64,000 nt of DNA, from positions 65,535 through 129,534 of the forward strand of contig CAZWIT010000001.1 in NCBI GenBank assembly GCA_964633905.1. Reading direction: 5' to 3'. The position numbers and the translations under genes were made by a program. The stretch comes from an uncultured Gammaproteobacteria bacterium. GTDB taxonomy: Bacteria > Patescibacteriota > Patescibacteriia > UBA1558 > GWA2-36-10. Of the stretch, positions 5,296 to 62,275 are shown one piece after another; position 1 is the stretch's first letter; each line of letters opens with the position of its first letter. Under the pieces are notes generated by a model. The model did not search any database. It was not told the DNA's origin and saw only the letters and a program-made list of their open reading frames with translations.

Positions 5296-5370
5296 CCGCG
5301 CGTAGCTCAGCTGGACAGAGCACTCTCATTACGAAGAGAGAGGTCGGAGGTTCAAGTCCTTCCGCGTGCC
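5296..5370 (+). tRNA. tRNA, probably Val (anticodon TAC)
   Basis: Cloverleaf: D-arm GCTCAGCTGGACAGAGC, T-arm GGAGGTTCAAGTCCTTC, anticodon region CTCTC-ATTACGA(A)-GAGAG resembling E. coli tRNA-Val(UAC). The anticodon loop appears to be 8 nt and the acceptor stem has a mismatch, so it needs a tRNAscan check. It overlaps a spurious ORF 5250..5876. Confidence 0.6.
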
Positions 5371-5372
5371 CC

Positions 5373-5420
5373 CGGGCTCGCTGGCGTAAAAAAACGTCAG
5401 CGAGCCCTTTATTTTTGACA
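5373..5420 (+). terminator. Rho-independent terminator after the tRNA
   Basis: GGGCTCGCTGGCG-taaaaaaa-CGTCAGCGAGCCC stem followed by TTTATTTTT. Confidence 0.7.
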
Positions 5421-5504
5421 AAAATTTTTAATTATGTTAATTTTGCTTGTCGATTGTTATTTGTAAATTCCTTACTATTAGTCTCAAAACAAGGGAGGGT
5501 AAGC

Positions 5505-11660: not shown

Positions 11661-11827
11661 GACAATTATTTAGAATTATGGTAATTTCATAGGCAATTTA
11701 AGGTACATTGATAATATAAAGAAAGTACCATTTTCTATACAAAAACTGATATTTTTAGCGATTTTGGAAATATAGTTTTTACTTGTTAACTTCACCACAA
11801 CTAACACAGGAAAACGGAGGTGATGAC

Positions 11828-12862: not shown

Positions 12863-12877
12863 GGGAGGTTAGTGGTC

Positions 12878-15803: not shown

Positions 15804-15833
15804 GAAGAAATAATATTATATTAATATAATAAA

Positions 15834-16532: not shown

Positions 16533-16535
16533 TTT

Positions 16536-17237
16536 ATGAATATTTTTTTAACAGTACAAATTATAACATTAACCTTTGCAACTTTAATTAATTTGTTGAT
16601 GAGTATTTTAGTGGCTAAGCGTGGCTTAAAAAATAAAATAAATAGGTATTTTAGCATTGTAACATTTTTTAATTTTTTATGGAGCTTTACAGTAATATGT
16701 GCTTTTTCTGGAGTTGCAATAGAGTTAGTTAATTTTTTTGATAAAACCACTAATTTTCTTAGTATTGGTATTATTTTATCTTTGTTTTATTTTTCTTTAC
16801 ATTTTCCCTATCAAAGAGAAGAAATAGATAAAGTTAAAACTACTATAATTTGGTTATTTACTATTTTATTATCCAGTATAATTTATACTAAGTGGTTTAT
16901 TATTAGTACTGTTTGGAGAATGAGACCATTTGATTATATTTCGTATTTTAATAGATATGGCTATTTTATTTATGTTACTTATTTTTTTATGTTAGCAATT
17001 TGGTCAATTTATTTATTATTTGTTAAATATAAACATGCTGAGGGTTTAGCTAAAAAGCAATTAAAATGGTTAATTTTAAGCATTAGTATTGGCTTATTTG
17101 GTGGCGCCTATTTTAATATATTGTTAAATTACTTAGGAGAATTTAGTTTAGGTTGGCTTGGTCCAATTTTTACTTTATTTATGAACATTACTGTTTTCTA
17201 TTTTATTATATCCTCTAAAGATAAGATTAATGACTAG
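16536..17237 (+). CDS. Stand-alone 7TM sensor-domain membrane protein (paralog 2)
   Basis: 233 aa. KYKHAEGLAKKQLKWL… motif. Tandem to the paralog at 15834. Confidence 0.6.
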   Translation: MNIFLTVQIITLTFATLINLLMSILVAKRGLKNKINRYFSIVTFFNFLWSFTVICAFSGVAIELVNFFDKTTNFLSIGIILSLFYFSLHFPYQREEIDKVKTTIIWLFTILLSSIIYTKWFIISTVWRMRPFDYISYFNRYGYFIYVTYFFMLAIWSIYLLFVKYKHAEGLAKKQLKWLILSISIGLFGGAYFNILLNYLGEFSLGWLGPIFTLFMNITVFYFIISSKDKIND

Positions 17238-31139: not shown

Positions 31140-31203
31140 AAAAGCGTTTTGGAGGATAAAATTATTTTAAACAATTAATCAAAATTATATGCTGAGGTTA
31201 AAA
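31140..31203 (+). repeat. Direct repeat DR2 (64 bp), contains the start codon of the giant RHS gene
   Basis: Same 64-mer as DR1 with tc→ct at the ATG(c/t)(t/c)GAGG position. ATG 31189 of the RHS ORF lies inside it. Confidence 0.9.
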
Positions 31204-37386: not shown

Positions 37387-37408
37387 TTTAGATAAATAAT
37401 ATTAAATT

Positions 37409-37948
37409 ATGGACATAAAAGAAATTTATAAAAAAATTATTGAACTATCATCGCAGATTTTTAATAATGATGAAGAGCAACATAAGATTGATAATAAGAT
37501 AGAAAGATTGATTGAAGAGGTTAATATAAAACTAAGATCTTTAACTGATGAGGAAAAGGATAGATTGTTATTGCCATTTTTAAATGACTTCCATAGGTTT
37601 AAATATAGAACTTATATATTAAGGACTTTGGAAAATGTTTCCACATTTAATATTAACAATTTTTTATTAGGTGAGATTTTGTTGGAAAATGATGTGTCAG
37701 GGGTAATCCCATATTTACGTATTGTTTCTTTATCAACCGGTAAAGATATTATTAAGAATCAAATAAATGATATTTATATTTCTAACAAAGTTATTCCCGA
37801 AACAAAAGAATTTAATAATCTTTGTGTGTTACTATTTTATATTGGTATTAGACAAGATGTTGCTAATAAAATGAAGCAAGATATTAATAAATTAGGTCCG
37901 AATTCAAAGAAATTCATAACTCATATATTAGAGAACTATAAGTCATAA
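37409..37948 (+). CDS. Candidate RHS immunity protein 1 (hypothetical, 179 aa)
   Basis: Small AT-rich cytoplasmic ORF 22 nt downstream of the RHS toxin gene. Confidence 0.45.
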   Translation: MDIKEIYKKIIELSSQIFNNDEEQHKIDNKIERLIEEVNIKLRSLTDEEKDRLLLPFLNDFHRFKYRTYILRTLENVSTFNINNFLLGEILLENDVSGVIPYLRIVSLSTGKDIIKNQINDIYISNKVIPETKEFNNLCVLLFYIGIRQDVANKMKQDINKLGPNSKKFITHILENYKS

Positions 37949-37963
37949 TTTAAAATAGATATT

Positions 37964-38386
37964 ATGTTAAATTATGAAAATGTTTTAGAAAAATTATTAG
38001 ATTATGTCCCTAAATTGAATAATTATAATGATTATAAGTATATTTCTGACAATGGAAATAGGAATAATCAGTATGTAGTTTTTGGTGTATTGCAGAATTT
38101 TTTTAAAGAAGTCTTTAAGGAAAAGAAGATTAAGATTTTAGAAAGTATATCAAAATTTTTAGAAGAAGCCTGTTCATCTGACGATCTTAAACTTAAAGAA
38201 TTAGGGATGTTCGGATTTATGGAGAATCTTTACGGAAATCCTGAAGATTTTGATAAAGATATGTTGGATTACTTTGGTAAAAATACTAAACAAGTATTAA
38301 TTGATACAGTAGAACACAACTCCAAAATAGGCATGGAAGATAAGGAAAAAATTTATAAACTATTCGGTGATAAATTGAATAAATAA
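37964..38386 (+). CDS. Candidate RHS immunity protein 2 (hypothetical, 140 aa)
   Basis: Second small ORF immediately downstream, the typical toxin-immunity arrangement. Confidence 0.4.
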   Translation: MLNYENVLEKLLDYVPKLNNYNDYKYISDNGNRNNQYVVFGVLQNFFKEVFKEKKIKILESISKFLEEACSSDDLKLKELGMFGFMENLYGNPEDFDKDMLDYFGKNTKQVLIDTVEHNSKIGMEDKEKIYKLFGDKLNK

Positions 38387-41762: not shown

Positions 41763-43346
41763 ATGCCAAGAATAAATTTTCATCGCAATGATAAAACAAG
41801 TGGGCCGGTAGTTTTGGCTATTTTAGATGGCTGGGGTATTAGTAAGGAAAATACAGGTAATGCTTTTGTTTTAGCTAAAAAACCAACTTTTGATAATTTA
41901 TTTAAAAAGTATCCACATGCAAAACTAGCCGCGTCTGGTGTCGAGGTTGGTTTGCCTGCTGGTCAGCCCGGAAATTCAGAGGCTGGTCATATGAATATTG
42001 GTGCTGGTCGGGTAGTTGAGCAGGATGCTGTTACTGTTTCCCGTTCTATTAATAATGGTACTTTTTTTAAGAACCCAGCTTTTTTGCAAGCCATCAAGCA
42101 TGTGAATAAACATAAATCTAGTATTCATCTGATGGGTTTGATTTCCAATGTTTCTAGCCCGCATTCTGATACTGATCATCTTTTATCTTTGTTAAGCTTG
42201 TTTCAACAAAAAACTAAACAACCGATTTATTTGCATTTATTTACTGATGGCCGTGATAGTCCAATTTTTGCTTCAGCTAAAATTTTAGCTCACTATCGTC
42301 ATATTTTTGATTCAGAGCGCGTGCATATTGCTACTATCATGGGTCGTTTTTATGCTATGGATAGAAAAAAGGCTTGGGATAGGACAAGGGCTGCTTATGA
42401 GGCTATGACTTTAGCCAAAGCCGAATTTTTTGCAGCTAATGCCGAGTCTGCTGTATCAGCGGCTTATGCTAGAGGTGAGAGTGATGAGTTTATCAAACCC
42501 ACAGTTATTTTAAATGGTAAAAAACCAGTAGCTACTATTGGTAATAATGACTCGGTAGTATTTTTTAATTTGCGTTCTGATCGAGCGCGACAGTTGAGCA
42601 AAGTTTTTGTTCAAGCTGATTTTGTCAAAAAAAATCCAGGTGCTTTTAAACCCAGTAAAGTTTTAAATAATTTAGTGTTTGTGGCTTTGACTGACTTTGG
42701 GCCAGATTTAGATAGTATTTTGACTGCTTATCCAGGTATAGATTTAGCTGATACTTTAGTGGCCAGTCTAAAAGATAAACGTCAGCTTTATATTGCTGAA
42801 ACCGAAAAATATGCCCATGTTACTTATTTTTTTAATGGCGGTTATGATCATGCGATTGTTGGTGAGACTAGAGTCAATATTCCTAGTCAAGAAGTAGATT
42901 CTTATGATATGTCTCCAGCTATGTCAGCATCACAAATTAGCAAATATATTGTTGATGTCTTACAAAATAAGCAATTTGATTTTGTAACTGTTAATTTTGC
43001 TAATCTTGATATGGTTGGACATACTGGCAATCTCCAGGCTGCTATTAAAGCCATTGAAGCAGTAGATTTGGCTTTAACTGATATTTTAAAAGCAGTTTTT
43101 GATCATAATGGTACTTTAATAGTTACAGCTGATCATGGTAATATAGAAGAGATGATAAATTTAAAAACTGGCGAAATTGATACCGAACATTCTATTAATC
43201 CAGTGCCATTTATTGTTGCTCAAAAAAATATAAAATATAAAATAAAAAGTAATGGCAGTTTGAGTAATATTGCTCCAACTATTTTAGAAATTATGAATGT
43301 TGATAAACCACTGGCCATGACTGCTAAATCTTTAATTATAAAATAA
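41763..43346 (+). CDS. gpmI: 2,3-bisphosphoglycerate-independent phosphoglycerate mutase (copy 1)
   Basis: ILDGWG, GNSEAGH (catalytic Ser), YAHVTYFFNGG, ADHGN. Confidence 0.9.
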   Translation: MPRINFHRNDKTSGPVVLAILDGWGISKENTGNAFVLAKKPTFDNLFKKYPHAKLAASGVEVGLPAGQPGNSEAGHMNIGAGRVVEQDAVTVSRSINNGTFFKNPAFLQAIKHVNKHKSSIHLMGLISNVSSPHSDTDHLLSLLSLFQQKTKQPIYLHLFTDGRDSPIFASAKILAHYRHIFDSERVHIATIMGRFYAMDRKKAWDRTRAAYEAMTLAKAEFFAANAESAVSAAYARGESDEFIKPTVILNGKKPVATIGNNDSVVFFNLRSDRARQLSKVFVQADFVKKNPGAFKPSKVLNNLVFVALTDFGPDLDSILTAYPGIDLADTLVASLKDKRQLYIAETEKYAHVTYFFNGGYDHAIVGETRVNIPSQEVDSYDMSPAMSASQISKYIVDVLQNKQFDFVTVNFANLDMVGHTGNLQAAIKAIEAVDLALTDILKAVFDHNGTLIVTADHGNIEEMINLKTGEIDTEHSINPVPFIVAQKNIKYKIKSNGSLSNIAPTILEIMNVDKPLAMTAKSLIIK

Positions 43347-43347
43347 A

Positions 43348-44925
43348 ATGAAAAGACCTCGCCCAGTAGTTTTGCTTATTCTTGATGGTTTTGGTATTGC
43401 GCCACCTTCGCGCGCTAATGCTATTTCTTTAGCTAAAACCCCAAATTTTGATAAATATTCGGTGCATTATCCAATCATGCCCATTGCTGCTTCGGGTGAA
43501 GCGGTAGGCTTGTCTTGGGGCGAGATGGGTAATAGCCAAGTCGGACACTTATCTTTGGGCTCAGGTTTAATTCCTTATCAAAATTTACCTAGGATTAATA
43601 AATCAATTACCGACGGCAGTTTTTTTAATAACGAAGCATTTTTAGCAGCCATCAAGCACACTCAAGACCATAATAGTGCTTTGCATATTTTAGGTTTAGT
43701 AAGTTCTGGTGGTGTGCATAGCTATAATGAACATCTTTATGCTTTGTTAGAATTAGCGCGTAAGCATAAAGTCAATCAGGTTTATGTGCATGCTTTTTTG
43801 GATGGTCGCGATACGCTCTATAATAGCGGTGTTAATTTTATTTCTAAATTACAAGAAAAATTAAGAAGTATTGGCGTCGGAGTTATCGCAACTGTGGGAG
43901 GGCGTTTTTATAGCATGGATAGGGATAATCGTTGGGATCGGGTTGCTAAAGCTTATGAGGCTATGGTTTTGGGTCAATCTCAAGATAAATATGACGATCC
44001 TATTACTGCTATTCAAGAGTCTTACAAAAAAAATATTTTCGATGAAGAAATGGTGCCCAGTGTTATTATTGATGACTTGGGGCAAGCTAAAGGTAAGATT
44101 AAAGACGGTGATGCAGTAATATTTTTTAATTTTCGTTCAGATCGGGCCAGACAAATGACAGAAGCTTTGACTGTTCCGGGTTTTGAAAAATTCCCTCGTG
44201 AATATTTTAAAGATTTATTCTTGGTGACCATGACCGAATATGAAAAGGATTTGCCAGTTAAAGTTGCTTTCCCACCATTGATAATCGATACGCCACTAGC
44301 TAAAGTAATTTCAGATGCTGGCTTAAAACAATTGCATATTGCTGAAACCGAAAAATATGCACACGTTACTTACTTTTTTAATGGCGGGCAAGAGCAAATT
44401 TATGCAGGTGAAGATAGGATTTTGGTGCCTTCTCCCCAGGTTGTGTCTTATGATCAAAAACCAGCTATGTCAGCACGGGAAATTACTAATAAGATTAATC
44501 AGGCTATTAAAGAAGGTAAATATGATTTTATTGTTGCTAATTTTGCTAATCCTGATATGGTGGCTCATACCGGTAATTTGCAGGCGACAATTGAAGCTAT
44601 TGAATTATTAGATCAATTAATTAATGAAATTGTAGAGGTTACTTTGTCTTATGAGGGCGTTGTTTTAATTACCGCCGATCATGGCAATGCTGAAGGTTTA
44701 TTTGATTTACAAACTGGTGAAATCGAAAAAGAGCATAGTAATAGTCCGGTGCCTTTATTTATCATTGGTTCGGAATTTGCTGGTAAAAGCGTTTTAACTG
44801 GTCTTACAAGCTCGGATCTTAGTCGCATTACGCCAGTTGGTGTTTTGGCTGATGTGGCCCCCACAATTTTAAAAATTATGGGTATTAAAAAACCACCAGC
44901 TATGACTGGCAGTTCCTTAATTTAA
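43348..44925 (+). CDS. 2,3-bisphosphoglycerate-independent phosphoglycerate mutase (tandem paralog, copy 2)
   Basis: ILDGFG, GNSQVGH, YAHVTYFFNGG, ADHGN. ~40% identity to copy 1. 1-nt intergenic gap. Confidence 0.85.
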   Translation: MKRPRPVVLLILDGFGIAPPSRANAISLAKTPNFDKYSVHYPIMPIAASGEAVGLSWGEMGNSQVGHLSLGSGLIPYQNLPRINKSITDGSFFNNEAFLAAIKHTQDHNSALHILGLVSSGGVHSYNEHLYALLELARKHKVNQVYVHAFLDGRDTLYNSGVNFISKLQEKLRSIGVGVIATVGGRFYSMDRDNRWDRVAKAYEAMVLGQSQDKYDDPITAIQESYKKNIFDEEMVPSVIIDDLGQAKGKIKDGDAVIFFNFRSDRARQMTEALTVPGFEKFPREYFKDLFLVTMTEYEKDLPVKVAFPPLIIDTPLAKVISDAGLKQLHIAETEKYAHVTYFFNGGQEQIYAGEDRILVPSPQVVSYDQKPAMSAREITNKINQAIKEGKYDFIVANFANPDMVAHTGNLQATIEAIELLDQLINEIVEVTLSYEGVVLITADHGNAEGLFDLQTGEIEKEHSNSPVPLFIIGSEFAGKSVLTGLTSSDLSRITPVGVLADVAPTILKIMGIKKPPAMTGSSLI

Positions 44926-48872: not shown

Positions 48873-50957
48873 TTATTGATTAACGGCTAGTAAATAGAGA
48901 TGTTGACCATTGAGTAAATAAATTGCTTGTTCGTTAGGGTCAATGGTTAGATCAAGTAATTGATCAAATTTTAGGGAAGTATATTGGTCTTTAATATTAC
49001 CGTCTTTATTTAAAATAACTACGCGTTGGTTACTGGGATCAATAATATAGAGATATTTAGAATCACGGAAAGTTTGGATAGTAGCCTGAGCGCCAATTTT
49101 TGGATTGGGTGTTTGGTAGTTAAATTCTTCTGTTTTTCCTTTGGTAAATTTTTTGATCTGACCTTGGTTATCAATAGTATAAATACTGCCATCAACTGTA
49201 AAACTAGAAACATCTTGTAGATTTACCGTTTCTTTTAACCAAGCTTGACCATTGCTAAAGCTATTTGCATTTTCTGGGTATTTAAAAAATTGATTGCCTT
49301 TAGCGTCTAAAACATAGAGATTGTTGCTATAGATGTTTAAATCTTGGACGCTAGTATTGCCGGAAGATTGGGATAAGGGGAAGTTAGCTTGTTTATTTTC
49401 GGTAATATCATAAATAAAAAATTGTTCACTATTACCAACTACTAGGCGTTGACTTTGGGGCCAGTCCGCTAAAAATTTGCCTTGATTAAAGTCAGAAACA
49501 GCGTTTAAGTTTCGGTCTTTTAGTAAATAAATTTTTTGACTATCCAAGATATAAAAATTGCCATCTTTTTGAACAATTTGTTGGGGGTTTACTAAAGTAC
49601 TTAAACTACTTAATTCTAATGGCTCGGGAACATCGTGAATGCGTCGCACTTCATTTAATTGTTTGCGAGTCTTTTCTTTAAAGGTAGCAATTTCTTCTTC
49701 TTGTTGTTTGCTAGTGAGTTTTAAGTTTTCTAAGGTTGTTTGGATTTCTAGTAGGATGGTTTCAGCGGCTATTTGGTCATTGTAAATCAGTTTACTATCA
49801 GCTTCAGCAAATTTACCATCAATTGAACTTATTAATTCTTGATAAACTTTATCTTTTTGACTAACTGATTTTTTTTGAGTTAAAAAAACTAAACTTTGAA
49901 TAAATATTAAGACTGTAGCCAGTAAACCGACTAAAGCAATTTTTTGGGCAGACTTTAATCTTTGCCACCAATTATATTTTTTATCAAAGGTATTTTTTAC
50001 TTCTGATAATACTTGCTCTTCCTTTTGTTTGCGCCAGTGTGGTGAAAAAATAAACAAAATACTATTTTTTATTTGGCGGTATAAAAATCTTAATACTTTA
50101 TAGACACTGATAAAAAATAAAGCTATTAAGGCAAAAAATCTTTTTATTTTTTGTAAAGGATTATTATTGTGTTTATGCTCAAAGTCTAAGCTAGCTTGGT
50201 GATGACTAGGTGTTTTAGGTCGATGATAACTAATAAGATCTGACTTTTTCTTTATTTCATCATTTGCTTCAATAGTAGTATTTGCTGAGGCTACTTGATC
50301 ATAATCTCCAGGACCACTATTTTTTATTACCACAGCGTTAAAGCTAACAAAATCAGGCACAGTAGCCAGGAGTGAATTAAGTTTGATTACTGTAGCTTGT
50401 GGGGTATAGCGTTTGGCTATTTGTCTAATTTTTTCTTGGGCAATATAGTCAAGGAGTGAGTTGGTAGAAATAATAAAAACATCGCCTTCTTCAAGTAAAC
50501 CGCTGTGAATGTCAGTAAAAGCTTTGCTGGGGCTAAAGTTTTGTTTTTTATGTAAAACAGCTTCTAGGCGGTGGCGTGATAGAGCAAGTCCGTTGATCTG
50601 ACCAATGTTTGATAAATGAATAGCTTCATTATTAAAAATGCCAATAGCCATATCTAAACCATATAACCAGTTGCGAATTTTGCTAGCGGCGCTTAATTCT
50701 GGTAATAGGCTGTTTATTTTTTGCAAGATATCTTCTAAAACAATCTCTGGATTAGAATTTTTGCTAGAACTAAGGATATTACTAGCTTCGCTGATAATTT
50801 GTTCTAAAAGTGCTTGCTGGTCTATTTTATTTTTTTGGACTTCTAGTACGATAAAAAGACGACCACAGGCCGCAGCATCGCTAATATAGTTGACAGATAA
50901 TTCACGAGCACTAAAGGCGTCGTGGCGGAATAATCTGTGATATCTTAAGTCCGGCAT
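48873..50957 (-). CDS. Large membrane protein: degenerate PPM/SpoIIE-like N-domain, 2 TM, coiled coil, C-terminal beta-propeller-like repeats
   Basis: …EEGDVFIISTNSLLDYI… (PP2C-like GDxxxxxSDGL pattern). TM helices FFALIALFFISVY / IALVGLLATVLIF. Repeated [FY]x[IL]D…N units in the last 250 aa. Confidence 0.5.
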   Translation of the reverse strand: MPDLRYHRLFRHDAFSARELSVNYISDAAACGRLFIVLEVQKNKIDQQALLEQIISEASNILSSSKNSNPEIVLEDILQKINSLLPELSAASKIRNWLYGLDMAIGIFNNEAIHLSNIGQINGLALSRHRLEAVLHKKQNFSPSKAFTDIHSGLLEEGDVFIISTNSLLDYIAQEKIRQIAKRYTPQATVIKLNSLLATVPDFVSFNAVVIKNSGPGDYDQVASANTTIEANDEIKKKSDLISYHRPKTPSHHQASLDFEHKHNNNPLQKIKRFFALIALFFISVYKVLRFLYRQIKNSILFIFSPHWRKQKEEQVLSEVKNTFDKKYNWWQRLKSAQKIALVGLLATVLIFIQSLVFLTQKKSVSQKDKVYQELISSIDGKFAEADSKLIYNDQIAAETILLEIQTTLENLKLTSKQQEEEIATFKEKTRKQLNEVRRIHDVPEPLELSSLSTLVNPQQIVQKDGNFYILDSQKIYLLKDRNLNAVSDFNQGKFLADWPQSQRLVVGNSEQFFIYDITENKQANFPLSQSSGNTSVQDLNIYSNNLYVLDAKGNQFFKYPENANSFSNGQAWLKETVNLQDVSSFTVDGSIYTIDNQGQIKKFTKGKTEEFNYQTPNPKIGAQATIQTFRDSKYLYIIDPSNQRVVILNKDGNIKDQYTSLKFDQLLDLTIDPNEQAIYLLNGQHLYLLAVNQ

Positions 50958-51128: not shown

Positions 51129-51749
51129 ATGCTTGAACAAATTTTTGGTTCAACAGCCAGAACAGAAATTTTAAAATTTTTTTGTGTGCATGCCCAGGAT
51201 AAAGTTTTTATGCGAGAGCTAGCACGGCTTTTAAATTTACAACTAAATTCCATTAGAAGAGAGTTGGATAATCTAGAAAATTTTGGTTTTTTGCATTCAG
51301 CAGAGGAAGGTGGCAAGAAATTTTATTATACTAATCAAGATTTCCCCTTATTTTTGGAAATAAAAAATTTAGTGCTTAAGGCTATTACTTTGGATGATAT
51401 GTATTTAGCTGATAAGATGTCTAAAATTTCTGGTTTAAAGCTTTTGGTTTTTACTGGTATGTTGACCAAGGCTCCGACTTTGACTGATGTTTTGATTGTT
51501 GGTAAAGTGAAAAAACAAGATTTTGAAAAGTATTTAAAGAAAATTTCGGAAGGCTTAGCTCATGATTTAAGATTTACTTATCTTAGCACCGAGGACTATC
51601 TTTATCGTTTGGCGGTAGTAGATAAATTTTTGTATGATATTTGGGCACATAATAAGATAGTGGTAGTTGATAAGCTTTCCAAAGAACCAAAACTAAGCAC
51701 TATTTCCGATTATAATTTTAAGCATTTTAAGGAGAATGAACAAAAATGA
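51129..51749 (+). CDS. Winged-helix transcriptional regulator
   Basis: N-terminal HTH ARTEILKFFCVHAQDKVFMRELARLLNLQLNSIRRELDNLENFGFL. Confidence 0.55.
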   Translation: MLEQIFGSTARTEILKFFCVHAQDKVFMRELARLLNLQLNSIRRELDNLENFGFLHSAEEGGKKFYYTNQDFPLFLEIKNLVLKAITLDDMYLADKMSKISGLKLLVFTGMLTKAPTLTDVLIVGKVKKQDFEKYLKKISEGLAHDLRFTYLSTEDYLYRLAVVDKFLYDIWAHNKIVVVDKLSKEPKLSTISDYNFKHFKENEQK

Positions 51750-52174
51750 TTTTAGTTTTAAATATCAAAGTTAAAGAACAGGCGCTTTGGCAGCTTTATC
51801 AAGATGATAAGTTGATAGCCAGTCAATTAGTTGCTAAATTTGAGCAGAATGATAGTTTTTTAGCTTCTTTAGACAAGCTTTTTGAAAAAACTGGCAAAAA
51901 TTTAAAATTAGTTAAATCTTTTATTTTATTAGTAAAAGAAGCTAGTCTAACACAGCTAAAATTAGCGACGGCTATTATCAATGCCTTGGCTTGGCTAGAG
52001 GCAAAACCAATAGCAGGTGAGTTTTTTTATCATTTAACTGAAGCTGAAGTTTTAAGTCAGCAGTTTGTTAAAATATCAAAGATAAAAGAGTTTACACCTT
52101 TAAAAGTTGAGTATTTACGGCCAGTTGATATTACCATTAGTAAAAAAGTTAATAAATTTAAGTTAACTAATTGA
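51746..52174 (+). CDS. Hypothetical protein (142 aa), 4-nt overlap with upstream regulator
   Basis: ATGA overlap. No recognisable motif. Confidence 0.4.
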   Translation: MILVLNIKVKEQALWQLYQDDKLIASQLVAKFEQNDSFLASLDKLFEKTGKNLKLVKSFILLVKEASLTQLKLATAIINALAWLEAKPIAGEFFYHLTEAEVLSQQFVKISKIKEFTPLKVEYLRPVDITISKKVNKFKLTN

Positions 52175-52377
52175 TCCGGGTATAAATTGGTAATAAGAAT
52201 ATATAAAAACAGTCATTATTGTCTGTTTTTTTATTTAAAATGGTTTACTAGACTGCTTGCGCCGTAAGGAGCTTAGTGGCTATATGGTGTGGATAAGTTA
52301 TTTTTTTTGATTTGGCAAAAAAGTTAAAAAATTGTTTAACATAAGCATTATTGTGGATAAGTAAAGCCTTTATTTTA

Positions 52378-52407
52378 TTGACATTTGCTTAGTCAGTGGG
52401 GTATAAT
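52378..52407 (+). promoter_or_regulatory. mraZ/dcw promoter TTGACA-17-TATAAT
   Basis: TTGACAtttgcttagtcagtgggGTATAAT. Confidence 0.65.
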
Positions 52408-52423
52408 GTATTAAGAAAGTAGA

Positions 52424-52440
52424 AAAGTGGTAAAAAGTGG
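52424..52440 (+). promoter_or_regulatory. MraZ-type operator repeats (AAAGTGG ×2, 10-bp periodicity) in the mraZ 5' UTR
   Basis: AAAGTGGtaaAAAGTGG between -10 and the start codon. This matches the Firmicutes/Mollicutes MraZ box AAAGTG[TG] with 3-nt spacers. Confidence 0.5.
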
Positions 52441-52472
52441 GGAATAACTAGTTTGAGCTGTGGATAAGTTTT

Positions 52473-52904
52473 ATGTTTATTGGCGAATACAAATACAACT
52501 TAGATGAAAAAAATCGCTTGGCTATACCTAGTAAGTTTCGCCAGCAATTTTCTGATGGCTTAGTTATTACCAAAGGTTTGGATAACTGTTTGTTTATTTA
52601 CACTGCTAAAGAATGGCAAAAATTAGTTGATAAATTAACCAATTTGCCGATCAGCCAAGCTAAATCCAGAGCTTTTTCTCGTATGATGTTAGCTGGTGCT
52701 ATGGATGTAATGCTTGATAAACAAGGTAGAGTAGTCTTGCCGGATTATTTAAAGGAGTTTGCTTCTTTAAATAAACAAATAGTTATAGCTGGTCTTTATA
52801 ATCGTTTAGAAGTTTGGGATGATAAATTATGGGCTAGGTATCAAAGAGTGGCTGATAAAGACAGTAATAATATAGCTGAGAGCTTGATTGATTTGGGTAT
52901 TTAG
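52473..52904 (+). CDS. mraZ: Transcriptional regulator MraZ
   Basis: MFIGEYKYNLDEKNRLAIPSKFR… with two SpoVT/AbrB-like halves (DKQGRVVLP). Confidence 0.9.
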   Translation: MFIGEYKYNLDEKNRLAIPSKFRQQFSDGLVITKGLDNCLFIYTAKEWQKLVDKLTNLPISQAKSRAFSRMMLAGAMDVMLDKQGRVVLPDYLKEFASLNKQIVIAGLYNRLEVWDDKLWARYQRVADKDSNNIAESLIDLGI

Positions 52905-52905
52905 T

Positions 52906-53874
52906 ATGCCGCCATTTAAACACCAGAGTGTTTTAAGTAAGGAGTTGATAGCTTATTTAAAACCACTTAGTAATCAGAATTTTATTGATGGTACCTTGGG
53001 TGGTGGCGGGCATAGTAAAGCAATTTTGCAAAAGACTGGGCCCAGTGGCAAAGTTTTAGCTTTTGAACTTGATGTAAGGGCATTGACGGCAGCTAAGCAG
53101 TATTTGAGTGAATATAAAAATCGTTTAATAGTTGTTCACGATAGTTACGCTCATTTAAAAAAGAATTATCAGGAACATAAAAATTTTGGTGCCGTTTCCG
53201 GCATTATTGTAGATTTAGGTTTATCCTCTGATCAATTGGATCAAGCGCAGCGTGGTTTTTCTTTTAAAGATCAAGGCAAGCTTGATATGCGTTTTGATGC
53301 TACTCAAGATAGTTTGACTGCTAGCGATATTATTCTGAACTGGTCGGAAGCAAATTTATTTAAAATATTCAAGGAGTATGGCGAAGAATTGCAGGCTAAG
53401 CGCCTGGCTAAAGGTTTAGTCCTTTGGCGAGAAGCTATATCAAAACAAAAACAAAAGTATATAGAGACTCCCATGCTTGTCTCCGCCATACTTCGAATAT
53501 TAAATATAAAAGAAAGTGATTTAAAAAAATTCCGTCGCCATCCCGCTACTAAAGTTTTTCAGGCTTTGCGGATAGCGGTTAATCAAGAATTAACAAATTT
53601 ACAAGCTTTTTTGCCACAAGCAGTTGAAATCTTGGCCCCAGGCGGACAGCTGGCTGTAATCAGTTTTCACTCCCTTGAGGATAGGATAGTGAAACAATTT
53701 TTTCAGAAATCAGCTCGTCCTTGCATCTGTCCGCCTGCTTCACCTCAATGTGTTTGCGGCTTAAAACCCAGTTTAAAAATAATTAGCAAAAAGGCAGTCA
53801 AGCCCAGTGAAGAGGAGATTTCCTTAAATCCTCGTAGTCGTAGTGCAATCTTAAGGCTTGCACAGAAAATATAA
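52906..53874 (+). CDS. rsmH: 16S rRNA (cytosine1402-N4)-methyltransferase RsmH
   Basis: HQSVLSKE…DGTLGGGGHS SAM motif. The likely start is ATG 52906 (MPPFKHQ); the track start is 52888. Confidence 0.9.
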   Translation: MPPFKHQSVLSKELIAYLKPLSNQNFIDGTLGGGGHSKAILQKTGPSGKVLAFELDVRALTAAKQYLSEYKNRLIVVHDSYAHLKKNYQEHKNFGAVSGIIVDLGLSSDQLDQAQRGFSFKDQGKLDMRFDATQDSLTASDIILNWSEANLFKIFKEYGEELQAKRLAKGLVLWREAISKQKQKYIETPMLVSAILRILNIKESDLKKFRRHPATKVFQALRIAVNQELTNLQAFLPQAVEILAPGGQLAVISFHSLEDRIVKQFFQKSARPCICPPASPQCVCGLKPSLKIISKKAVKPSEEEISLNPRSRSAILRLAQKI

Positions 53875-53897
53875 AAATAAAAACAAAAATAAAAAAT

Positions 53898-54218
53898 ATG
53901 TTAAAATCACAAACTTTATCAAAAATGTTGACAATTTTAAAAAAACGTAATGGTTTATGGTTGGCAATGATAGTCTTGTTGTGGATGTTTGGCTTAGTAG
54001 CTTCTAATCTTTCTACTAGTCAAAATTTAGAGCGTAATGAGTTAAGCAAGAATATTAGAAAATTAGAAGACGAGCAACGTATTTTGGATGCGGCCGTTAG
54101 TCAATTACAGGCTTTAGACCGTATTGAAAATGCCAGTCAGCGTTTAAATTTAGTGAAAGTTGATAATAAAAATGTAGCATATTTGACAGTGTCTGATGAT
54201 AAAGTGGCTTTAAAATAA
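53898..54218 (+). CDS. ftsL: Cell division protein FtsL-like
   Basis: Small bitopic protein with a coiled-coil between rsmH and ftsI. Assigned by position and topology. Confidence 0.55.
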   Translation: MLKSQTLSKMLTILKKRNGLWLAMIVLLWMFGLVASNLSTSQNLERNELSKNIRKLEDEQRILDAAVSQLQALDRIENASQRLNLVKVDNKNVAYLTVSDDKVALK

Positions 54219-54242
54219 ACTAAAAATTAGTTTTGGTAATCT

Positions 54243-56051
54243 ATGAATTGGGGACGCAACAGCTTTAATCAAACTATTATTACCAGAACTAATATTTTAC
54301 AGAGTATTATTTTTTTATTTATACTAGCGGTCATTGGCCGCTTGTTTTATTTGCAAATTATTAAAAATAAATATTATTTTGACTTAGGTTTATCACAACG
54401 TGGTGTTGAACAAGAAGTAAAACCTGAGAGAGGGAGAATATTAGCTTTAAGTTCTGAAACAGAAGCAGAACAGTTTTATCCTTTGGCAGTCAATAAAGTT
54501 TATTATGAGGTCATTTTAAATCCTAGTAAAATTACTCGACCTCAGAATATGGCGGATATTTTAGCTGAGACTTTAGAAATGGATAAAAATCTTGTTTTAG
54601 AAAAGGTGAAATTAGTTGATAAACGTTATGAATTGCTTGCTAAAAATATCAGTGAAGATAAAATTATCACTATTAAATCAAAACTAGAAGAGATTTTAAC
54701 TGATGTTAATCAGGGTAAATCAAGTAAAGATAAATTAAGGACAATTGAAGAATTAGGCATTAGTTTTAATAAAAGTGTTTTGCGTTATTATCCCGACAAG
54801 GAAGTAGGTGCTCATATTTTGGGTTTTTTAGGTTTTGCTGAAGATGGAGTAAGTCGCGTTGGTAAATATGGTTTAGAAGCCTATTTTGAAAAAGATTTAT
54901 CAGGCCAAACTGGTTGGGTTTTAGGTGAAAAAGATGTAGCTGGAGTACTACTTGCTGATAGCCAAGCCGAAGCAGCGGTTAATGGGGCTGATTTAGTTTT
55001 GACCATTGATCACACTGTTCAATACAAAGCTTGTAAGATGTTAGAAAAATCAGTAATAAAACACAGTGCTGATAGGGGTTCTTTGATTATTTTAGATAGT
55101 AGCACAGGAGCTATTCGGGCTATGTGTAATTATCCTAGTTTTGATCCTAATGAATACAATAAGGTAAGTGATGCTAATGTTTATAATAACTTAGCTGTTT
55201 ATCAAGCCTATGAGCCTGGTTCAGTTATGAAAGCTCTTGCTATGGCTATTGCTATTGACCAGGGTAAGGTCAATCCAACTACCATGTATGAAGACAAGGG
55301 TGAAATTAAATTCGCTAGCGGTCAAGTTATTCGTAATGCTGGTAATAAGACCTATGGTTTTGTTGATATGAAAAAAGTCTTAGCTTATTCTATTAACACT
55401 GGTATTGTTCGTGCTACTTCAGATGTGCCTAACAAAGTATTTCATGATTATATGAAAAATTTTGGTTTTGGCGAAGCAACTAATATTTATTTAAGTCAGG
55501 AAGTCAAAGGCGATATAGATGAATTAGAAAAAAAAGGTGATATTTATAAAGCTACTGCTTCTTATGGTCATGGTATTACAGTTACGCCTTTGCAAATGGT
55601 TAATGCTTTTAATGTTATTGCTAATCGTGGTAATCTGATGCAGCCTTATATTATTAACTCAGTTCGCTATAATGATAAAGTAATTGCTCAATATGAGCCT
55701 AAAATTTTACGTCGAGAAGTAATTTCTACGCAAACAGCCTCAACTCTATCTGCAATGTTGGTACACGTAGTAGATAGCGAACACGCTGTTGGCGCTCGCG
55801 TGCCAGGATATTTTGTTGCTGGTAAATCAGGCACAGCTCAAGTTGCTAGTATTGGAGCTAAAAAATATGATAGCAGTGTTACTATTCATAGTTTTATTGG
55901 TTTTGCTCCTAATGAAAATCCTAAATTCACCATGTTAGTAAAATTAGATAACCCTAAGACTGCTCAATACTCTGAAGCCACGGCTATTCCTTTATTTGGC
56001 GAAATTGCTAAATTTCTGTTAGAATACTATCGCATTCCACCCAGTCGTTAA
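54243..56051 (+). CDS. ftsI: Penicillin-binding protein (FtsI/PBP2-type transpeptidase)
   Basis: N-terminal TM, dimerisation domain, transpeptidase motifs (SVMK…, SIN, KSGT). Confidence 0.85.
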   Translation: MNWGRNSFNQTIITRTNILQSIIFLFILAVIGRLFYLQIIKNKYYFDLGLSQRGVEQEVKPERGRILALSSETEAEQFYPLAVNKVYYEVILNPSKITRPQNMADILAETLEMDKNLVLEKVKLVDKRYELLAKNISEDKIITIKSKLEEILTDVNQGKSSKDKLRTIEELGISFNKSVLRYYPDKEVGAHILGFLGFAEDGVSRVGKYGLEAYFEKDLSGQTGWVLGEKDVAGVLLADSQAEAAVNGADLVLTIDHTVQYKACKMLEKSVIKHSADRGSLIILDSSTGAIRAMCNYPSFDPNEYNKVSDANVYNNLAVYQAYEPGSVMKALAMAIAIDQGKVNPTTMYEDKGEIKFASGQVIRNAGNKTYGFVDMKKVLAYSINTGIVRATSDVPNKVFHDYMKNFGFGEATNIYLSQEVKGDIDELEKKGDIYKATASYGHGITVTPLQMVNAFNVIANRGNLMQPYIINSVRYNDKVIAQYEPKILRREVISTQTASTLSAMLVHVVDSEHAVGARVPGYFVAGKSGTAQVASIGAKKYDSSVTIHSFIGFAPNENPKFTMLVKLDNPKTAQYSEATAIPLFGEIAKFLLEYYRIPPSR

Positions 56052-56062
56052 ATATTAGTAAA

Positions 56063-57340
56063 ATGAGTAAAATTTTGAGAAAACCATTGTTTTGGCTATT
56101 AAAGTTACTGGCTAAGGCAACTATCAAAAAATACCAACCAAAAGTGATTGGCATTACTGGTTCAGTTGGTAAAACATCGGCAAAATTTGCAACTGCTGTT
56201 GTTTTGGCATCAAAATTTTCTATTCGTTATGGTAAAAAGAATTATAATAACGAAATTGGTTTACCGCTCACTATTTTAGGAGATGATCTTACTGCTGGAA
56301 AAAATATTTTTGTTTGGTTTAGGATTTTTTTAAGGGCTTTAAAAAATTTATTATTTACAGATAAAAAATATCCTCAAGTTTTAATTTTAGAAATGGGTGC
56401 AGATCGTCCAGGTAATATTGATTATTTGGTTGATATTGCGTCACCACATATAGCAGTAATTACAGCAATTGGTGCTAGTCATTTAGAGTTTTTTGGCAGC
56501 ATTGATAAAGTATTAATTGAAAAATCTAAGATTTTTAAAAAATTAAAATCAGGCGATTGGGCCGTTTTAAATAGTGATGATGTTTATTTACAAAAAATTA
56601 TTCCTCAGATTAAAAATAATATTCACACCTTTGGCACTAGTGCGGATAGTAGTTTGCAGATTGAACAAGTGCATTTAAGTAAAAAGAATGACAGTTATGG
56701 TACTAGTTTTAAATTAAAGTTTAAAGGTGCTGAAGCGCCAGTATTTTTGCCTAATGTCTTGGGTAAACAGCAGGCCGCAGCTAGCGCTGCCGCTGCCTCT
56801 GTTGGTTTGCTTATGGGTTTAAATTTAGTAGAGATTAGTCAATCTTTGATTAATTATAAATCAGCTTTAGGCCGCACTAATTTAATTAAAGGCATAAAAA
56901 ATACTTGGATTATTGATGATACTTATAATGCTTCACCGCAATCTTGTTTGGCAGCTTTAGAAATTTTAACAAATTTTCCGCTAGCTGGTAGAAAAATAGC
57001 AGTTTTTGGTGACATGAGAGAATTGGGTAATTTTAGCGAAGAAGGGCATAGGCAAGTAGGTGAGGCAGTAGTTAAATTTAAAATAGATTATTTATTTGTT
57101 ATTGGTGAAAAATCACGCGATATTGCTCGTAGTGCGCAAGACCAGGGCATGCCCGAAGATCATATTTATCATTTTCCGCAGACAATAGAAGCAGGTATTT
57201 TTTTACAAGAGAGGTTAAAAGACAATGATATAATTTTGGTTAAGGGTTCTAGGGGTAGTAAGATGGAGCAGGTGGTGTATGAGATTATGGCTAGACCATG
57301 GGATGCGGATGAATTATTAGTTGCTAAAGTTAGTCGTTAG
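56063..57340 (+). CDS. murF: Mur ligase (UDP-MurNAc-pentapeptide synthetase MurF-like)
   Basis: GITGSVGKTS P-loop, Mur ligase middle/C domains, position after ftsI. Could alternatively be MurE. Confidence 0.7.
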   Translation: MSKILRKPLFWLLKLLAKATIKKYQPKVIGITGSVGKTSAKFATAVVLASKFSIRYGKKNYNNEIGLPLTILGDDLTAGKNIFVWFRIFLRALKNLLFTDKKYPQVLILEMGADRPGNIDYLVDIASPHIAVITAIGASHLEFFGSIDKVLIEKSKIFKKLKSGDWAVLNSDDVYLQKIIPQIKNNIHTFGTSADSSLQIEQVHLSKKNDSYGTSFKLKFKGAEAPVFLPNVLGKQQAAASAAAASVGLLMGLNLVEISQSLINYKSALGRTNLIKGIKNTWIIDDTYNASPQSCLAALEILTNFPLAGRKIAVFGDMRELGNFSEEGHRQVGEAVVKFKIDYLFVIGEKSRDIARSAQDQGMPEDHIYHFPQTIEAGIFLQERLKDNDIILVKGSRGSKMEQVVYEIMARPWDADELLVAKVSR

Positions 57341-57397: not shown

Positions 57398-57472
57398 GGC
57401 CCTATCGTCTAACGGTTAGGACGCGTGGTTCTCAACCATGCAATCAGGGTTCGATTCCCTGTAGGGTCACCA
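57398..57472 (+). tRNA. tRNA-Glu (anticodon CTC), CCA encoded
   Basis: GGCCCTATCGTCTAACGGTTAGGACGCGTGG-TTCTCAA-CCATG…GGTTCGATTCCCTG-TAGGGTC-A-CCA. Similar to E. coli tRNA-Glu. Confidence 0.85.
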
Positions 57473-57473
57473 A

Positions 57474-57550
57474 GGTCGCATGGCTCAGCTGGTTAGAGCG
57501 TCGCATTCACATTGCGAAGGTCCCTGGTTCGAATCCAGGTGCGACCACCA
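57474..57550 (+). tRNA. tRNA-Val (anticodon CAC), CCA encoded
   Basis: Acceptor GGTCGCA/TGCGACC, D-arm GCTCAGCTGGTTAGAGC, anticodon stem-loop TCGCA-TTCACAT-TGCGA, T-loop TTCGAAT. 1-nt spacer from tRNA-Glu. Confidence 0.85.
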
Positions 57551-57592: not shown

Positions 57593-57700
57593 GGTATAAA
57601 AAACAAGACCCTTATTTATACTCCTTGGGTCTTAGGTAGGAGTTGGTGGTAGGCGGGCCCGAAGCTTGCAGCTTCGAACCCGCCGTACCGGTCGGAGGTG

Positions 57701-58525
57701 CTAGCCGCGCCGCGCCTTGGCAGCCGCGAGCAGCTGGTTGGCGATGACACGGGCCTCGCCGTTCACGGGCTTCAGCGGCTCGTGATCCAGCTTGGCAATG
57801 GCTTCATCCTGCACCGTGAGGTCACGGATGACCTCGTCGATGCTCTCGACGTCCGGGATCGCGATCGCGATCCCCATGCCGCCGTGGTCTCTCATGCAGA
57901 CCAGGCAGAGCCTCCAGACCTTGTCGCCGAGCGGAACCTGGGGCACGCCGTTCTTCCCGAACACGGGAATCCCGGCCTTGCCATCGATGCCGGTGCCCAG
58001 CTTGGTGACCATCTGCAGGGTGTCGGCCTCGTCTTCGCTGCGCTTCGTCTTCATCTGTGAGACGAACTCGCAGACACGGATGAAGACGCGGTCGGACGGG
58101 TAGTCCGGGTTGGTGGCGTAGAAGGCCAGCGCCGCGTTGATGTCCTTGGCGTACTGGTCGTTCTCCATCGCCATCGCCGACTTCTGCTGCTGCAGAGCCT
58201 CGATGCAATCGCGGACCCGGTCGTGGTCATGGTTCATCATGCCCACGGCCTCGTCCTGGTCGGGCCAGATCCGCATGACGAGCATGCGGTAGCCGTCGCC
58301 CGGAACCTGCAGGCCGCGCCGACGGTCGTCGATGACGACCGACAGGGGCTTGGCGGTGCCGATGCCGTGTTCGGCCGCGCCGTCTTGGACGTACACGACG
58401 CCGTAGGCGTTGCGGTACTCGCTGCGGGTGTTGCCGGTGGCGGTGGTCGGAGCGGTGGCGGTGGTCGGAGCGGTGGCGGCGGGAGCAGCGGCCTTGGGGG
58501 CCTTGGTGTTGGTCTTACGAGCCAT
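57701..58525 (-). CDS. Hypothetical 274-aa protein, ~65% GC foreign cassette gene 'B' (Ala/Pro/Thr-rich N-terminal tail)
   Basis: Coherent high-GC3 codon usage on the minus strand. SD AGGAGG 8 nt before ATG. Own consensus promoter P2 and downstream hairpins. The N-terminus MARKTNTKAPKAAAPAATAPTTATAPTTATG… is low-complexity. No motif recognised. Confidence 0.6.
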   Translation of the reverse strand: MARKTNTKAPKAAAPAATAPTTATAPTTATGNTRSEYRNAYGVVYVQDGAAEHGIGTAKPLSVVIDDRRRGLQVPGDGYRMLVMRIWPDQDEAVGMMNHDHDRVRDCIEALQQQKSAMAMENDQYAKDINAALAFYATNPDYPSDRVFIRVCEFVSQMKTKRSEDEADTLQMVTKLGTGIDGKAGIPVFGKNGVPQVPLGDKVWRLCLVCMRDHGGMGIAIAIPDVESIDEVIRDLTVQDEAIAKLDHEPLKPVNGEARVIANQLLAAAKARRG

Positions 58526-58623
58526 CTTGCTTACCTCCTGAAAATTAGAATGTGCACATCCCCTAAAGTGACAACAGTACCAACAGTCAGTACGTTTATT
58601 AGGGGATTTTTCATTATATCATA

Positions 58624-58652
58624 TATACAAATATTTGTCAAGGGTATTGAAA
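58624..58652 (-). promoter_or_regulatory. Promoter P2 (minus): TTGACA-17-TG-n-TATAAT
   Basis: Minus strand TTGACAaatatttgtatatatgaTATAAT. Confidence 0.65.
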
Positions 58653-58713
58653 AGCCCCGGCACTAGGTGCGTCGGGGCTTGGGGCGAAGTGGTACAACAC
58701 AGTCGGCTTGCTA

Positions 58714-59091
58714 CTAGATGTAGCAATTGATCTTGACCCTGGAAATGACTTCTCCAGAGACGCGATCACGAAGTAGTACTTCGTAATTGCCCACCACCAA
58801 GGTGGCTTTGGGATCGTTCATGACTTTAGCCAACAAGCGGCCATTCTTATAGATTTCCATGTAGGCCAGCTTCCTGGCCTGGTTGGATACCATGCAGATG
58901 GGCTTTTCATCAGCCAAGCGGAGGCGGATCGAATCGCCATCGACACAGACGTAGCTAGTATCGATATAGCGCGGGTTGGGCCGAACCAGGATGGTCGCTT
59001 CCCCAGGCTTGGTGATCGGCTGCGAATTGCAGGCGGCAAGCAGAGTCAGCGAAAGAAACAGCAGGCTGGCGATCAGGAAGAACTTACGCAT
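58714..59091 (-). CDS. Putative lipoprotein, GC ~55%, foreign cassette gene 'C'
   Basis: Signal peptide plus lipobox LLAAC. SD AAGGAGG 6 nt before ATG. Own promoter P3. Confidence 0.55.
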   Translation of the reverse strand: MRKFFLIASLLFLSLTLLAACNSQPITKPGEATILVRPNPRYIDTSYVCVDGDSIRLRLADEKPICMVSNQARKLAYMEIYKNGRLLAKVMNDPKATLVVGNYEVLLRDRVSGEVISRVKINCYI

Positions 59092-60820: not shown

Positions 60821-62275
60821 CTAAGGGATATTTTGCCAGCCTAAGGTGGTTGGTAATTCTTCGCTACTTAAAGTTAAATCTATTTCACCGTGATTGGCTG
60901 GAGGCGGAGGAGTGTTTTGATTTTGTCCTTCACGCTCAGTATCTAAATTTTTGAAGCTGACTTTGTTTTCATCAAAGAATAAACGGACAACGCCAGTAGG
61001 GCCATTACGGTGTTTATCAACATGAATTTCGGCTAAATGTTTTTCTTCTTCTGGGCAGTCACCTCTAGTTTTATCTTTGGCGCGTCTATAAATAAACATT
61101 ACCACATCGGCATCTTGCTCAATTGATCCAGATTCACGTAAATCAGCCAGTTTTGGTATAGCCGGGGATCTATTCTCAACAGCACGGGATAGCTGAGAAA
61201 GCGCAAGTACAGGAATATCAAGTTCTCTAGCAATTTGTTTTAAGGCTCTGGAAATTTCTGATATTTCTTGCACTCTATTTTCTTGACGACCACCGCCATC
61301 CATTAATTGTAAATAGTCAACCACTAAAAAGCCAAGATTGTGTTCCATTTTTAAGCGTCTAGCTTTAGTGCGGATTTCCATGATATTAGCATTAGCAGAA
61401 TCATCTATAAAAATTGGTGCTTCTGAAAGTACCCCCATAGCCCTACCAATGCGAGGGAAGTCGTCGTCATCTTCTTTATCAGATAGTCTGCCGGTGCGCA
61501 TTTTCCATAAATCAACTTGAGCTTCTGAAGCAAGCAAACGATCGACTAGCTGTTCTTTTGACATTTCTAAAGAAAAGATGCCGACCGCTACTTTGGAATT
61601 TACGGCAATATGTCTTACCATATCTAGGGCAAAGGTGGTTTTACCCAAAGAAGGTCGAGCAGCTAAAATTACTAGATCGGAATTTTGTAAACCAGATAAA
61701 AGTTTGTCTAAAGCTGTGTAACCAGTGGGAATACCACGGGTACCTAAGCCACCCATTTTGTGTAGTTCGTCAATACGAGTAAAGGCTTCGCCCAAGACGG
61801 TTTTAATAGGTATAAAATTCTTTTTCAAAGATTCTTGAGAAATGGAAAATAGCTTTTGTTCGGCTCTATCTAATAGTTTTTCTACATCTTCAGATTCACT
61901 AAAGCTAAATTCGCTAATTTCTGAAGCAGCTTGTTCTAATTTTCTTAAAGTAGATTTTTTGCGAATAATATTAGCATAGGTCAAGACATGAGAAGCATTG
62001 GGCACAGCTGCAGTTAGATCAGCTAAGTAGGCTTTGCCACCAACCATTTCTAATTGTTTTTTTTCATTTAAGCGATTAGCTAGAGATAAAATATCAATTG
62101 GCTCGTGTTTTTCAAACAAATCTAAGATAGTTTGGTAAATAATACCATTAATATCTTTGTAGAAATCGCTAGGTTTTAAAGTATCACCAATTTTAATAAC
62201 AGCATCTTTATCGATGAGTAGAGCGCCTAAGATACTAGCCTCGGCTTCTAAATTTTGGGGAGGAATTTTTGGCAT
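60821..62275 (-). CDS. dnaB: Replicative DNA helicase DnaB
   Basis: N-terminal DnaB domain, Walker A ARPSLGKT, 484 aa. Confidence 0.9.
   Translation of the reverse strand: MPKIPPQNLEAEASILGALLIDKDAVIKIGDTLKPSDFYKDINGIIYQTILDLFEKHEPIDILSLANRLNEKKQLEMVGGKAYLADLTAAVPNASHVLTYANIIRKKSTLRKLEQAASEISEFSFSESEDVEKLLDRAEQKLFSISQESLKKNFIPIKTVLGEAFTRIDELHKMGGLGTRGIPTGYTALDKLLSGLQNSDLVILAARPSLGKTTFALDMVRHIAVNSKVAVGIFSLEMSKEQLVDRLLASEAQVDLWKMRTGRLSDKEDDDDFPRIGRAMGVLSEAPIFIDDSANANIMEIRTKARRLKMEHNLGFLVVDYLQLMDGGGRQENRVQEISEISRALKQIARELDIPVLALSQLSRAVENRSPAIPKLADLRESGSIEQDADVVMFIYRRAKDKTRGDCPEEEKHLAEIHVDKHRNGPTGVVRLFFDENKVSFKNLDTEREGQNQNTPPPPANHGEIDLTLSSEELPTTLGWQNIP

Follow-up and report, generated by a model that had tools for sequence, protein, structure and literature searches.

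Patescibacteria (CPR) have tiny genomes with few recognisable regulators, and to my knowledge almost nothing is known of the way in which these organisms coordinate replication with division. The question is raised in a concrete form by a stretch of 64 kb from one of them (hereafter the window; ~33% GC), where the intergenic leader of a dcw-type operon, at 52288-52472, carries exact DnaA boxes on either side of a promoter and, between them, repeats of the MraZ type. The original prediction took this leader as a sign that the operon is under both MraZ autorepression and DnaA control or, alternatively, as part of a replication origin. What has to be decided is whether the elements of the leader are selected at all, and by which protein the boxes are read.

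The elements of the leader and the genes of the operon are collected in Table 1, in which TGTGGATAA is the reverse complement of TTATCCACA; the DnaA consensus used throughout is TTWTNCACA.

Table 1. Elements of the mraZ leader and neighbouring genes, with their coordinates in the 64-kb window
Feature	Position	Strand	Remarks
Far-distal DnaA box	52288-52296	-	TTATCCACA on -, TGTGGATAA on +; exact match; lineage-variable
Distal DnaA box	52352-52360	-	exact; ends 17 bp upstream of -35; centre at ~-59 from the predicted transcription start
-35 hexamer TTGACA	52378-52383	+	promoter match 12/12; conserved footprint island
R1 GTGG, putative MraZ box	52396-52399	+	in promoter spacer, abuts -10; conserved tgGTGGgGTATAAT; high information content
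-10 hexamer TATAAT	52402-52407	+	kept as TATAATGTAt in relatives
R2 AAAGTGG, MraZ-type repeat	52424-52430	+	fits GTG(G/T) box with 6-nt spacers (PMC12957436)
R3 AAAGTGG, MraZ-type repeat, extended as GTGGGG	52434-52440	+	10 bp after R2
Proximal DnaA box, 5' leader	52459-52467	-	exact; centre at ~+49 from the predicted start; 23 bp after R3
mraZ, operon gene 1	52473-52904	+	Pfam MraZ 9.7e-40
rsmH	52888-53874	+	Pfam
ftsL/DivIC-like	53898-54218	+	Pfam
Class B PBP	54243-56051	+	Pfam
Mur ligase (murE)	56063-57340	+	Pfam
dnaB	60821-62275	-	

The layout is largely as it had been predicted. All three exact boxes are present in the same orientation and arranged as described, except that the far-distal one starts 90 nt, and not 95 nt, before the -35; both promoter hexamers are perfect (52378-52407), but the spacer between them is 18 nt long instead of 17; the two AAAGTGG repeats do lie in 10-bp phase between the -10 and the ATG, a third conserved GTGG (R1) having been overlooked. 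Transcription would start at about 52414, which puts R2 and R3 at about +14 and +24. As anticipated, mraZ heads the operon, and the downstream dcw genes (52888-57340) have an identical order in relatives. Both DxxxR motifs of MraZ are found (DEKNR, residues 11-15, and DKQGR, residues 82-86), with K13, R15 and R86 kept. The leader is preceded, on its own strand, by two ORFs to which no Pfam family corresponds (51129-51749 and 51746-52174). The presence of dnaB nearby and the lack of dnaA in the window also hold, the latter by tblastn, which gave no DnaA. AAAGTAG at 52416, considered as a further MraZ box, was rejected, for it is not conserved in relatives.

Far from being frequent throughout the genome, the 9-mer is rare. 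Four exact copies of TGTGGATAA occur in the 64 kb, three of them in the leader and all three in one orientation, the sole copy elsewhere (27620) falling within a coding region; shuffling leads one to expect 0.65 copies in the window, and in 100 shuffles a count of four was never attained. The leader, in other words, has three exact boxes in 180 bp where 0.65 are expected per 64 kb. Along the same line, the 200 bp preceding mraZ in 30 related species hold the exact box at a density of 10.8 per kb, and the other 180 kb hold it at 0.017 per kb, the excess over the rest of the loci being ~560-fold.

These species were obtained by a MraZ-based scan of GTDB species representatives, which returned 80 loci, 30 of them with a MraZ 75-99% identical, from Komeilibacteria-like Patescibacteria. 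Many clearly Patescibacterial contigs are titled 'uncultured Gammaproteobacteria bacterium' or 'Candidatus Saccharibacteria' (L001-L003, L009, L013, L017 and others); they were assigned by gene content and MraZ identity, the taxonomy labels of these TPA assemblies being unreliable.

Each of the 31 species of the clade keeps the motif positions, which are met with again in a second class of Patescibacteria, as befits the original prediction. The proximal box is exact and forward in every species (31/31), at +57 from the start of the -10 (+46 in L009 and +56 in L026), and in one species an 11-bp deletion moves all the downstream elements jointly. Since the box is fixed relative to the -10 while the distance from the -10 to the ATG floats between 61 and 109 bp, it is tied to the promoter/operator and not to the start codon or the RBS, and a ribosome-binding role was rejected on the same ground. 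Just upstream of the -35, a distal box compatible with TTWTNCACA is again found in 31 of 31 species, forward only in 19, reverse only in five and as an inverted pair TTWTNCACA-N4-TGTGGATAA in seven, some species having a perfect 22-bp palindrome at this site. Its variants (TTATACACA, TTATGCACA, TTTTGCACA and TTTTCCACA) differ solely at W3 or N5. The distal and proximal boxes are separated by 105-108 bp in 23 species and by 96-98 bp, one helical turn less, in three; an analogue of the far-distal box at 52288 is present in nine of the 31, at variable distance.

The GTGG repeats keep their places too. R1 lies at -6 from the -10 in the window and in 29 of the 30 listed related loci (the exception, L009, has ATGG), and R2 and R3 are at +25 and +35 from the -10, each in 29 of 30 related loci. 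Examined column by column, conservation is confined to footprint islands, namely the -35, tgGTGGgGTATAATGTAt, aaaaGTGGt.AAAAGTGGGG and cTGTGGATAA, the DNA between them not being conserved; within the window's clade, T1 and ATAA are invariant at the flanking 9-mers and not at R1-R3. That the elements of the leader are real, selected cis-elements is virtually certain.

Some other candidates in and around the leader were set aside. The shared 11-mer TGTGGATAAGT is regarded as a coincidence, its 3' flank varying among relatives; a small hairpin-like element near 52257 was dropped, being present in three genomes only; and an element acting at the RNA level was rejected, with a fold z-score of -0.85 and with the motif also occurring upstream of the -35, hence in untranscribed DNA, which argues against such an element.

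As to the protein that reads the 9-mers, DnaA is very probably the one. The substitutions tolerated at the distal site are exactly those at the degenerate positions of the DnaA box, W3 and N5, and the orientation of the site is free. The motif was then followed outside the clade. Public metagenome contigs were scanned for the perfect palindrome TTATCCACA-N4-TGTGGATAA, which gave at least 120 stretches, 80 of which were listed and analysed. In at least 13 of these 80 listed loci, of very diverse GC content, the palindrome lies within 500 bp of dnaA, and in at least 7-8 a short, divergent mraZ follows it at a distance of 150-230 bp, this mraZ belonging to Candidatus Saccharibacteria/Saccharimonadales, with a MraZ ~30% identical. 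In at least five of the listed contigs (L125, L140, L151, L154 and L166) the palindrome is ~100-450 bp from a DnaD/DnaB-like primosome gene, the family of which was judged by eye; the placement echoes the control by DnaA that has been reported for dnaB of B. subtilis.

The Saccharibacterial arrangement is also seen in loci picked solely for the length of their contigs and not by motif: in four out of four, TTATCCACA is followed 4 nt on by an inverted second box (TGTGGATAA in one locus, TGTGAATAA in two and the degenerate TGTGAACAA in L211), and the pair stands upstream of an mraZ promoter overlaid with GTGGGTA repeats. Seven further Saccharibacterial loci come from the motif scan (L106, L118, L126, L135, L149, L152 and L158). 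The MraZ of these bacteria is short (120-123 aa), the inverted pair is followed by a 2+2 array of GTGGGTA/GTGG (L208-L211, ~9814-9843), and the end of the dcw cluster adjoins the gene of a TrwB/VirD4-like type IV secretion coupling protein.

In three loci (L117, L123 and L143) the motif can be examined at dnaA itself within the phylum. The DnaA of L123 shares a 90% cluster with the NCBI protein 'DnaA [Patescibacteria group bacterium]', those of L117 and L143 are related, and L123 has the order yidC, rnpA / dnaA-dnaN-recF, with the DnaA domain IV motif GGKDHSTIMH. The dnaA promoter region of each of the three contains an exact TGTGGATAA, which in L117 lies between -35-like and -10-like hexamers, and each has TTWTNCACA boxes just downstream of dnaA, eight of them in L117. 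It follows that canonical boxes are used by the DnaA of the phylum at the origin region, a conclusion whose scope is the phylum as sampled by these loci and not the window's own clade. The same three genes contain an inverted pair TTATCCACA-N4-TGTGGATAA at codon 96-97 (~1816-1837 in L117, 7026-7047 in L123 and 4585-4606 in L143), in a poorly conserved linker region encoding (I/F)IH(K/R)(P/A)VDK, and L123 has another exact box 21 bp beyond it; this intragenic pair may be an autoregulatory or origin-related site.

As far as the binding of DnaA, the binding of MraZ, the transcription start and the sign of regulation can be inferred from sequence, the promoter may work as follows. A consensus sigma-70-type promoter would drive mraZ-rsmH-ftsL-pbp-murE and would carry two classes of protein-binding site. 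The GTGG repeats, R1 included, fit a MraZ operator: they are direct repeats with a period of ~10 bp, in an array that is split and not contiguous, with one unit abutting the -10 and two just past the presumed start, and by analogy their positions appear suited to MraZ autorepression. The DnaA boxes would bracket this core, one ~17-20 bp upstream of the -35 and one in the leader, 23 bp after the last GTGG. Bound to them as a transcription factor, DnaA would probably regulate the transcription of mraZ, and the balance tips somewhat towards an effect of repression: a full match to the promoter consensus should need no activator, and down-modulation is proposed because DnaA negatively regulates the same operon via its promoter in B. 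subtilis. Abundant active DnaA, before initiation or when replication is blocked, would most likely lower the transcription of the dcw operon, with MraZ autoregulation layered atop, and the expression of division genes would thereby be coupled to replication status. Activation, too, would fit a consensus promoter that has a box upstream of it. Dual control by MraZ and DnaA, as originally predicted, is the best-supported explanation of the leader, given the comparative data and the precedent in B. subtilis.

A bolder form of the proposal, conceivable though unlikely, is that DnaA and MraZ act as one repressor complex of fixed geometry on the dcw promoter. One protein complex might read both R3 and the proximal box, given the rigid spacing of 23 bp from the one to the other, and the boxes, containing GTGG, could be shared or competitive sites; two DnaA, on phased boxes 105-108 (96-98) bp apart, would then clamp or loop DNA bent by a MraZ oligomer across the -10 and the start.

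The same spacing, rigid in essentially all species, may also be read with DnaA left aside, the 9-mers being outlying high-affinity MraZ sites, or dual MraZ/DnaA sites, under one oligomer extending over ~110 bp, and the match to DnaA being incidental. The DnaA box indeed contains GTGG, which is the MraZ core and speaks against a reading in terms of DnaA only; the GTGG cores lie roughly on one helix face, at -43, 0, +31, +41 and +64 bp from R1, and MraZ tolerates longer spacers at high concentration (PMC12957436). In other Patescibacteria the two motif classes blur: the repeats with 10-bp phasing have the sequence AAGTGGATAA/AAGTGGGGATAA, AGTGGATAA often stands before the ATG, and the central one of the 10-bp-phased units in L060, L069 and L077 is itself an exact box. 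MraZ of E. coli, too, reportedly binds a site overlapping a DnaA box, at the mioC promoter (Eraso et al. 2014, as cited in PMC4446571). Yet in the cryo-EM structure of MraZ base contacts are made at GTG(G/T) only, in boxes separated by six spacer nt (PMC12957436), and such contacts cannot explain why T1 and A6-T7-A8-A9 of the 9-mer never change in over 60 instances when, in the same species, these flanks do vary in the boxes of the array. Nor can they explain distal boxes that are inverted in five species and paired in inversion in seven, known MraZ arrays being direct repeats, or GTGC/GTGA variants (e.g. TTATGCACA and TGTGAATAA), which break the MraZ core and fit TTATNCACA; the proximal box, moreover, is 2-3 bp off the 10-bp register. 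I regard this explanation as improbable.

It is just as doubtful that DnaA binds but that the cluster serves replication, be it as part of an origin or as a titrating or recharging locus of the datA/DARS/DnaA-box-cluster type beside mraZ. Three exact boxes in 180 bp fit a common definition of a cluster, the 55-bp spacer between the two upstream boxes is AT-rich, and DnaA-box clusters away from the origin exist in B. subtilis. An origin at the mraZ leader, which had been the alternative offered by the original prediction, was nonetheless rejected and is unlikely. The window as a whole, and either flank of the leader in particular, has a positive GC skew, with no sign change and a monotonic cumulative curve, and neither dnaA nor dnaN, rnpA, yidC or rpmH was found in the window or in the 20-kb loci of relatives (within 10 kb); with no skew switch and no dnaA nearby, an origin at this site is not supported. 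In near-complete relatives, with contigs of 0.7-1.0 Mb, the gene order is kept, the locus is mid-contig and dnaA is absent within 10 kb, while the true Patescibacterial origin region in L123 has dnaA, dnaN, rnpA and yidC, none of which is near mraZ. Only two of the boxes, moreover, are conserved, the third being found in 9/31 relatives, and in every species the positions are fixed and helically phased with respect to the -35, the -10 and the GTGG repeats, as expected for promoter control and not for titration.

Finally, it is highly improbable that the 9-mer is the half-site of a clade-specific dimeric regulator, the candidate being the winged-helix protein encoded two genes upstream (51129-51749): most of the clade keeps its gene in synteny with mraZ, its CPR-restricted family bears the source names 'winged helix-turn-helix domain-containing protein' and 'predicted transcriptional regulator' and has weak HTH matches, and the distal site is a perfect 22-bp palindrome in some species, but the proximal site is always a lone half-site, the gene's own promoter is without boxes, L007, L019 and L022 retain the boxes with no such gene within 3 kb, Saccharibacteria have the box pair and other upstream genes, the same palindrome adjoins dnaA in many unrelated bacteria among the listed matches, and the substitutions tolerated are exactly those of DnaA. 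The winged-helix family itself is of ~200 aa, without a Pfam family, and is followed by a small ORF (51746-52174), the pair being syntenic with mraZ across the clade; in the window the gene lies downstream of a divergent ~700-aa protein (48873-50957, minus strand).

Beyond the operon, the window contains glycolysis genes, tRNA synthetases, histidine kinases, an RHS-type giant protein, rplJ/rplL, dnaB and recR, and several of its features are of interest in their own right. Directly after tRNA-Glu and tRNA-Val (57398-57550), in surroundings of ~33% GC, begins a sharply bounded island of 60-68% GC (57600-59000), with an ORF of 274 aa (57701-58525, minus) that has an Ala/Thr/Pro-rich N-terminus and no Pfam, Rfam or plasmid match; the island is foreign DNA that entered at a tRNA site, or else a chimera produced in assembly. 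Two full-length paralogues of cofactor-independent phosphoglycerate mutase (iPGM) are found in tandem (41763-43346 and 43348-44925), a duplication kept in L082-L087. A protein of 2065 aa with RHS repeat, SpvB and FG-GAP (31189-37386) is followed by small ORFs (37409-38386), one of them a DUF7674, and the whole (31189-38386) looks like a polymorphic toxin with its immunity genes. Upstream of a GAF-HisKA-HATPase kinase (23314-26121) stand three consecutive ORFs (14418-17237), each resembling histidine kinases in their N-terminal 7TM region alone (HisKA_7TM). A tRNA-like gene at 5295-5373 (Rfam tRNA, 42 bits), to which ARAGORN gives no identity but a four-base anticodon 'tacg', overlaps an ORF without family match (5250-5876). 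Of class Ib (Trp/Tyr-type) aminoacyl-tRNA synthetases there are two genes (6007-7050 and 11783-12862), the second beside tRNA-Trp in a stretch of 46% GC (12001-14000) that includes a pyridoxal-dependent decarboxylase and may have been acquired horizontally.

The principle of control of the dcw operon by DnaA is known, for DnaA has a role as transcription factor, with mraZ/ftsL among its targets in Bacillus. DnaA is reported to repress the B. subtilis operon yllB(mraZ)-ylxA-ftsL-pbpB after replication arrest (Goranov et al. 2005, as cited in PMC2533591 and in bioRxiv 10.1101/2022.02.09.479790), and current work on MraZ still cites the DnaA-yllB proposal (bioRxiv 10.1101/2022.02.09.479790). The operon is the same (mraZ-rsmH-ftsL-pbp), so is the proposed regulator, with MraZ autorepression through GTGG alongside, and the logic, from replication status to division genes, is shared. 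The present case differs in concerning Patescibacteria, in its perfect boxes at fixed positions that bracket promoter and operator in dozens of species, and in being proposed from sequence comparison.

MraZ autorepression has been shown for B. subtilis and Mycoplasma (PMC12957436; bioRxiv 10.1101/2022.02.09.479790). The operators of mra promoters in E. coli, B. subtilis and Mycoplasma consist of direct GTG(G/T) repeats with a 10-bp period, as R2 and R3 are 10 bp apart here; those operators have 3-4 contiguous boxes, whereas the array here is 1+2, with R1 31 bp upstream, and 2+2 in Saccharibacteria. With the clusters of dnaA promoters and oriC the mraZ site shares the 9-mer and the W/N degeneracy, as seen in the dnaA loci L117, L123 and L143, but its boxes are isolated and number 2-3, neither dnaA nor dnaN adjoins it and the skew does not switch there, so that it resembles a member of a regulon and not an origin. 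At mioC of E. coli, sites for DnaA and MraZ coincide or adjoin at one promoter, linking the regulators of replication and division; that gene is origin-proximal, whereas here the meeting point would be the dcw promoter itself. In the literature searched, no report was found that joins DnaA boxes with mraZ in CPR. What appears notable in these sequences is the phylum-wide conservation, the perfection of the boxes and the rigid architecture of the bracket.

The arrangement spans at least two classes, with MraZ only ~30% identical, and, together with the link between DnaA and mraZ in B. subtilis, this suggests that the connection is widespread and possibly ancient, and not a peculiarity of Bacillus. 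Saccharibacteria now amenable to culture and genetic manipulation have the same arrangement, so the idea is directly testable. Should a DnaA-MraZ complex of fixed geometry prove true, it would constitute a core cell-cycle switch and point to an ancient link between DnaA and dcw genes in common with Firmicutes. The dual control proposed here suggests, for its part, that even in a Patescibacterium with a tiny genome the division genes are wired to the status of replication.
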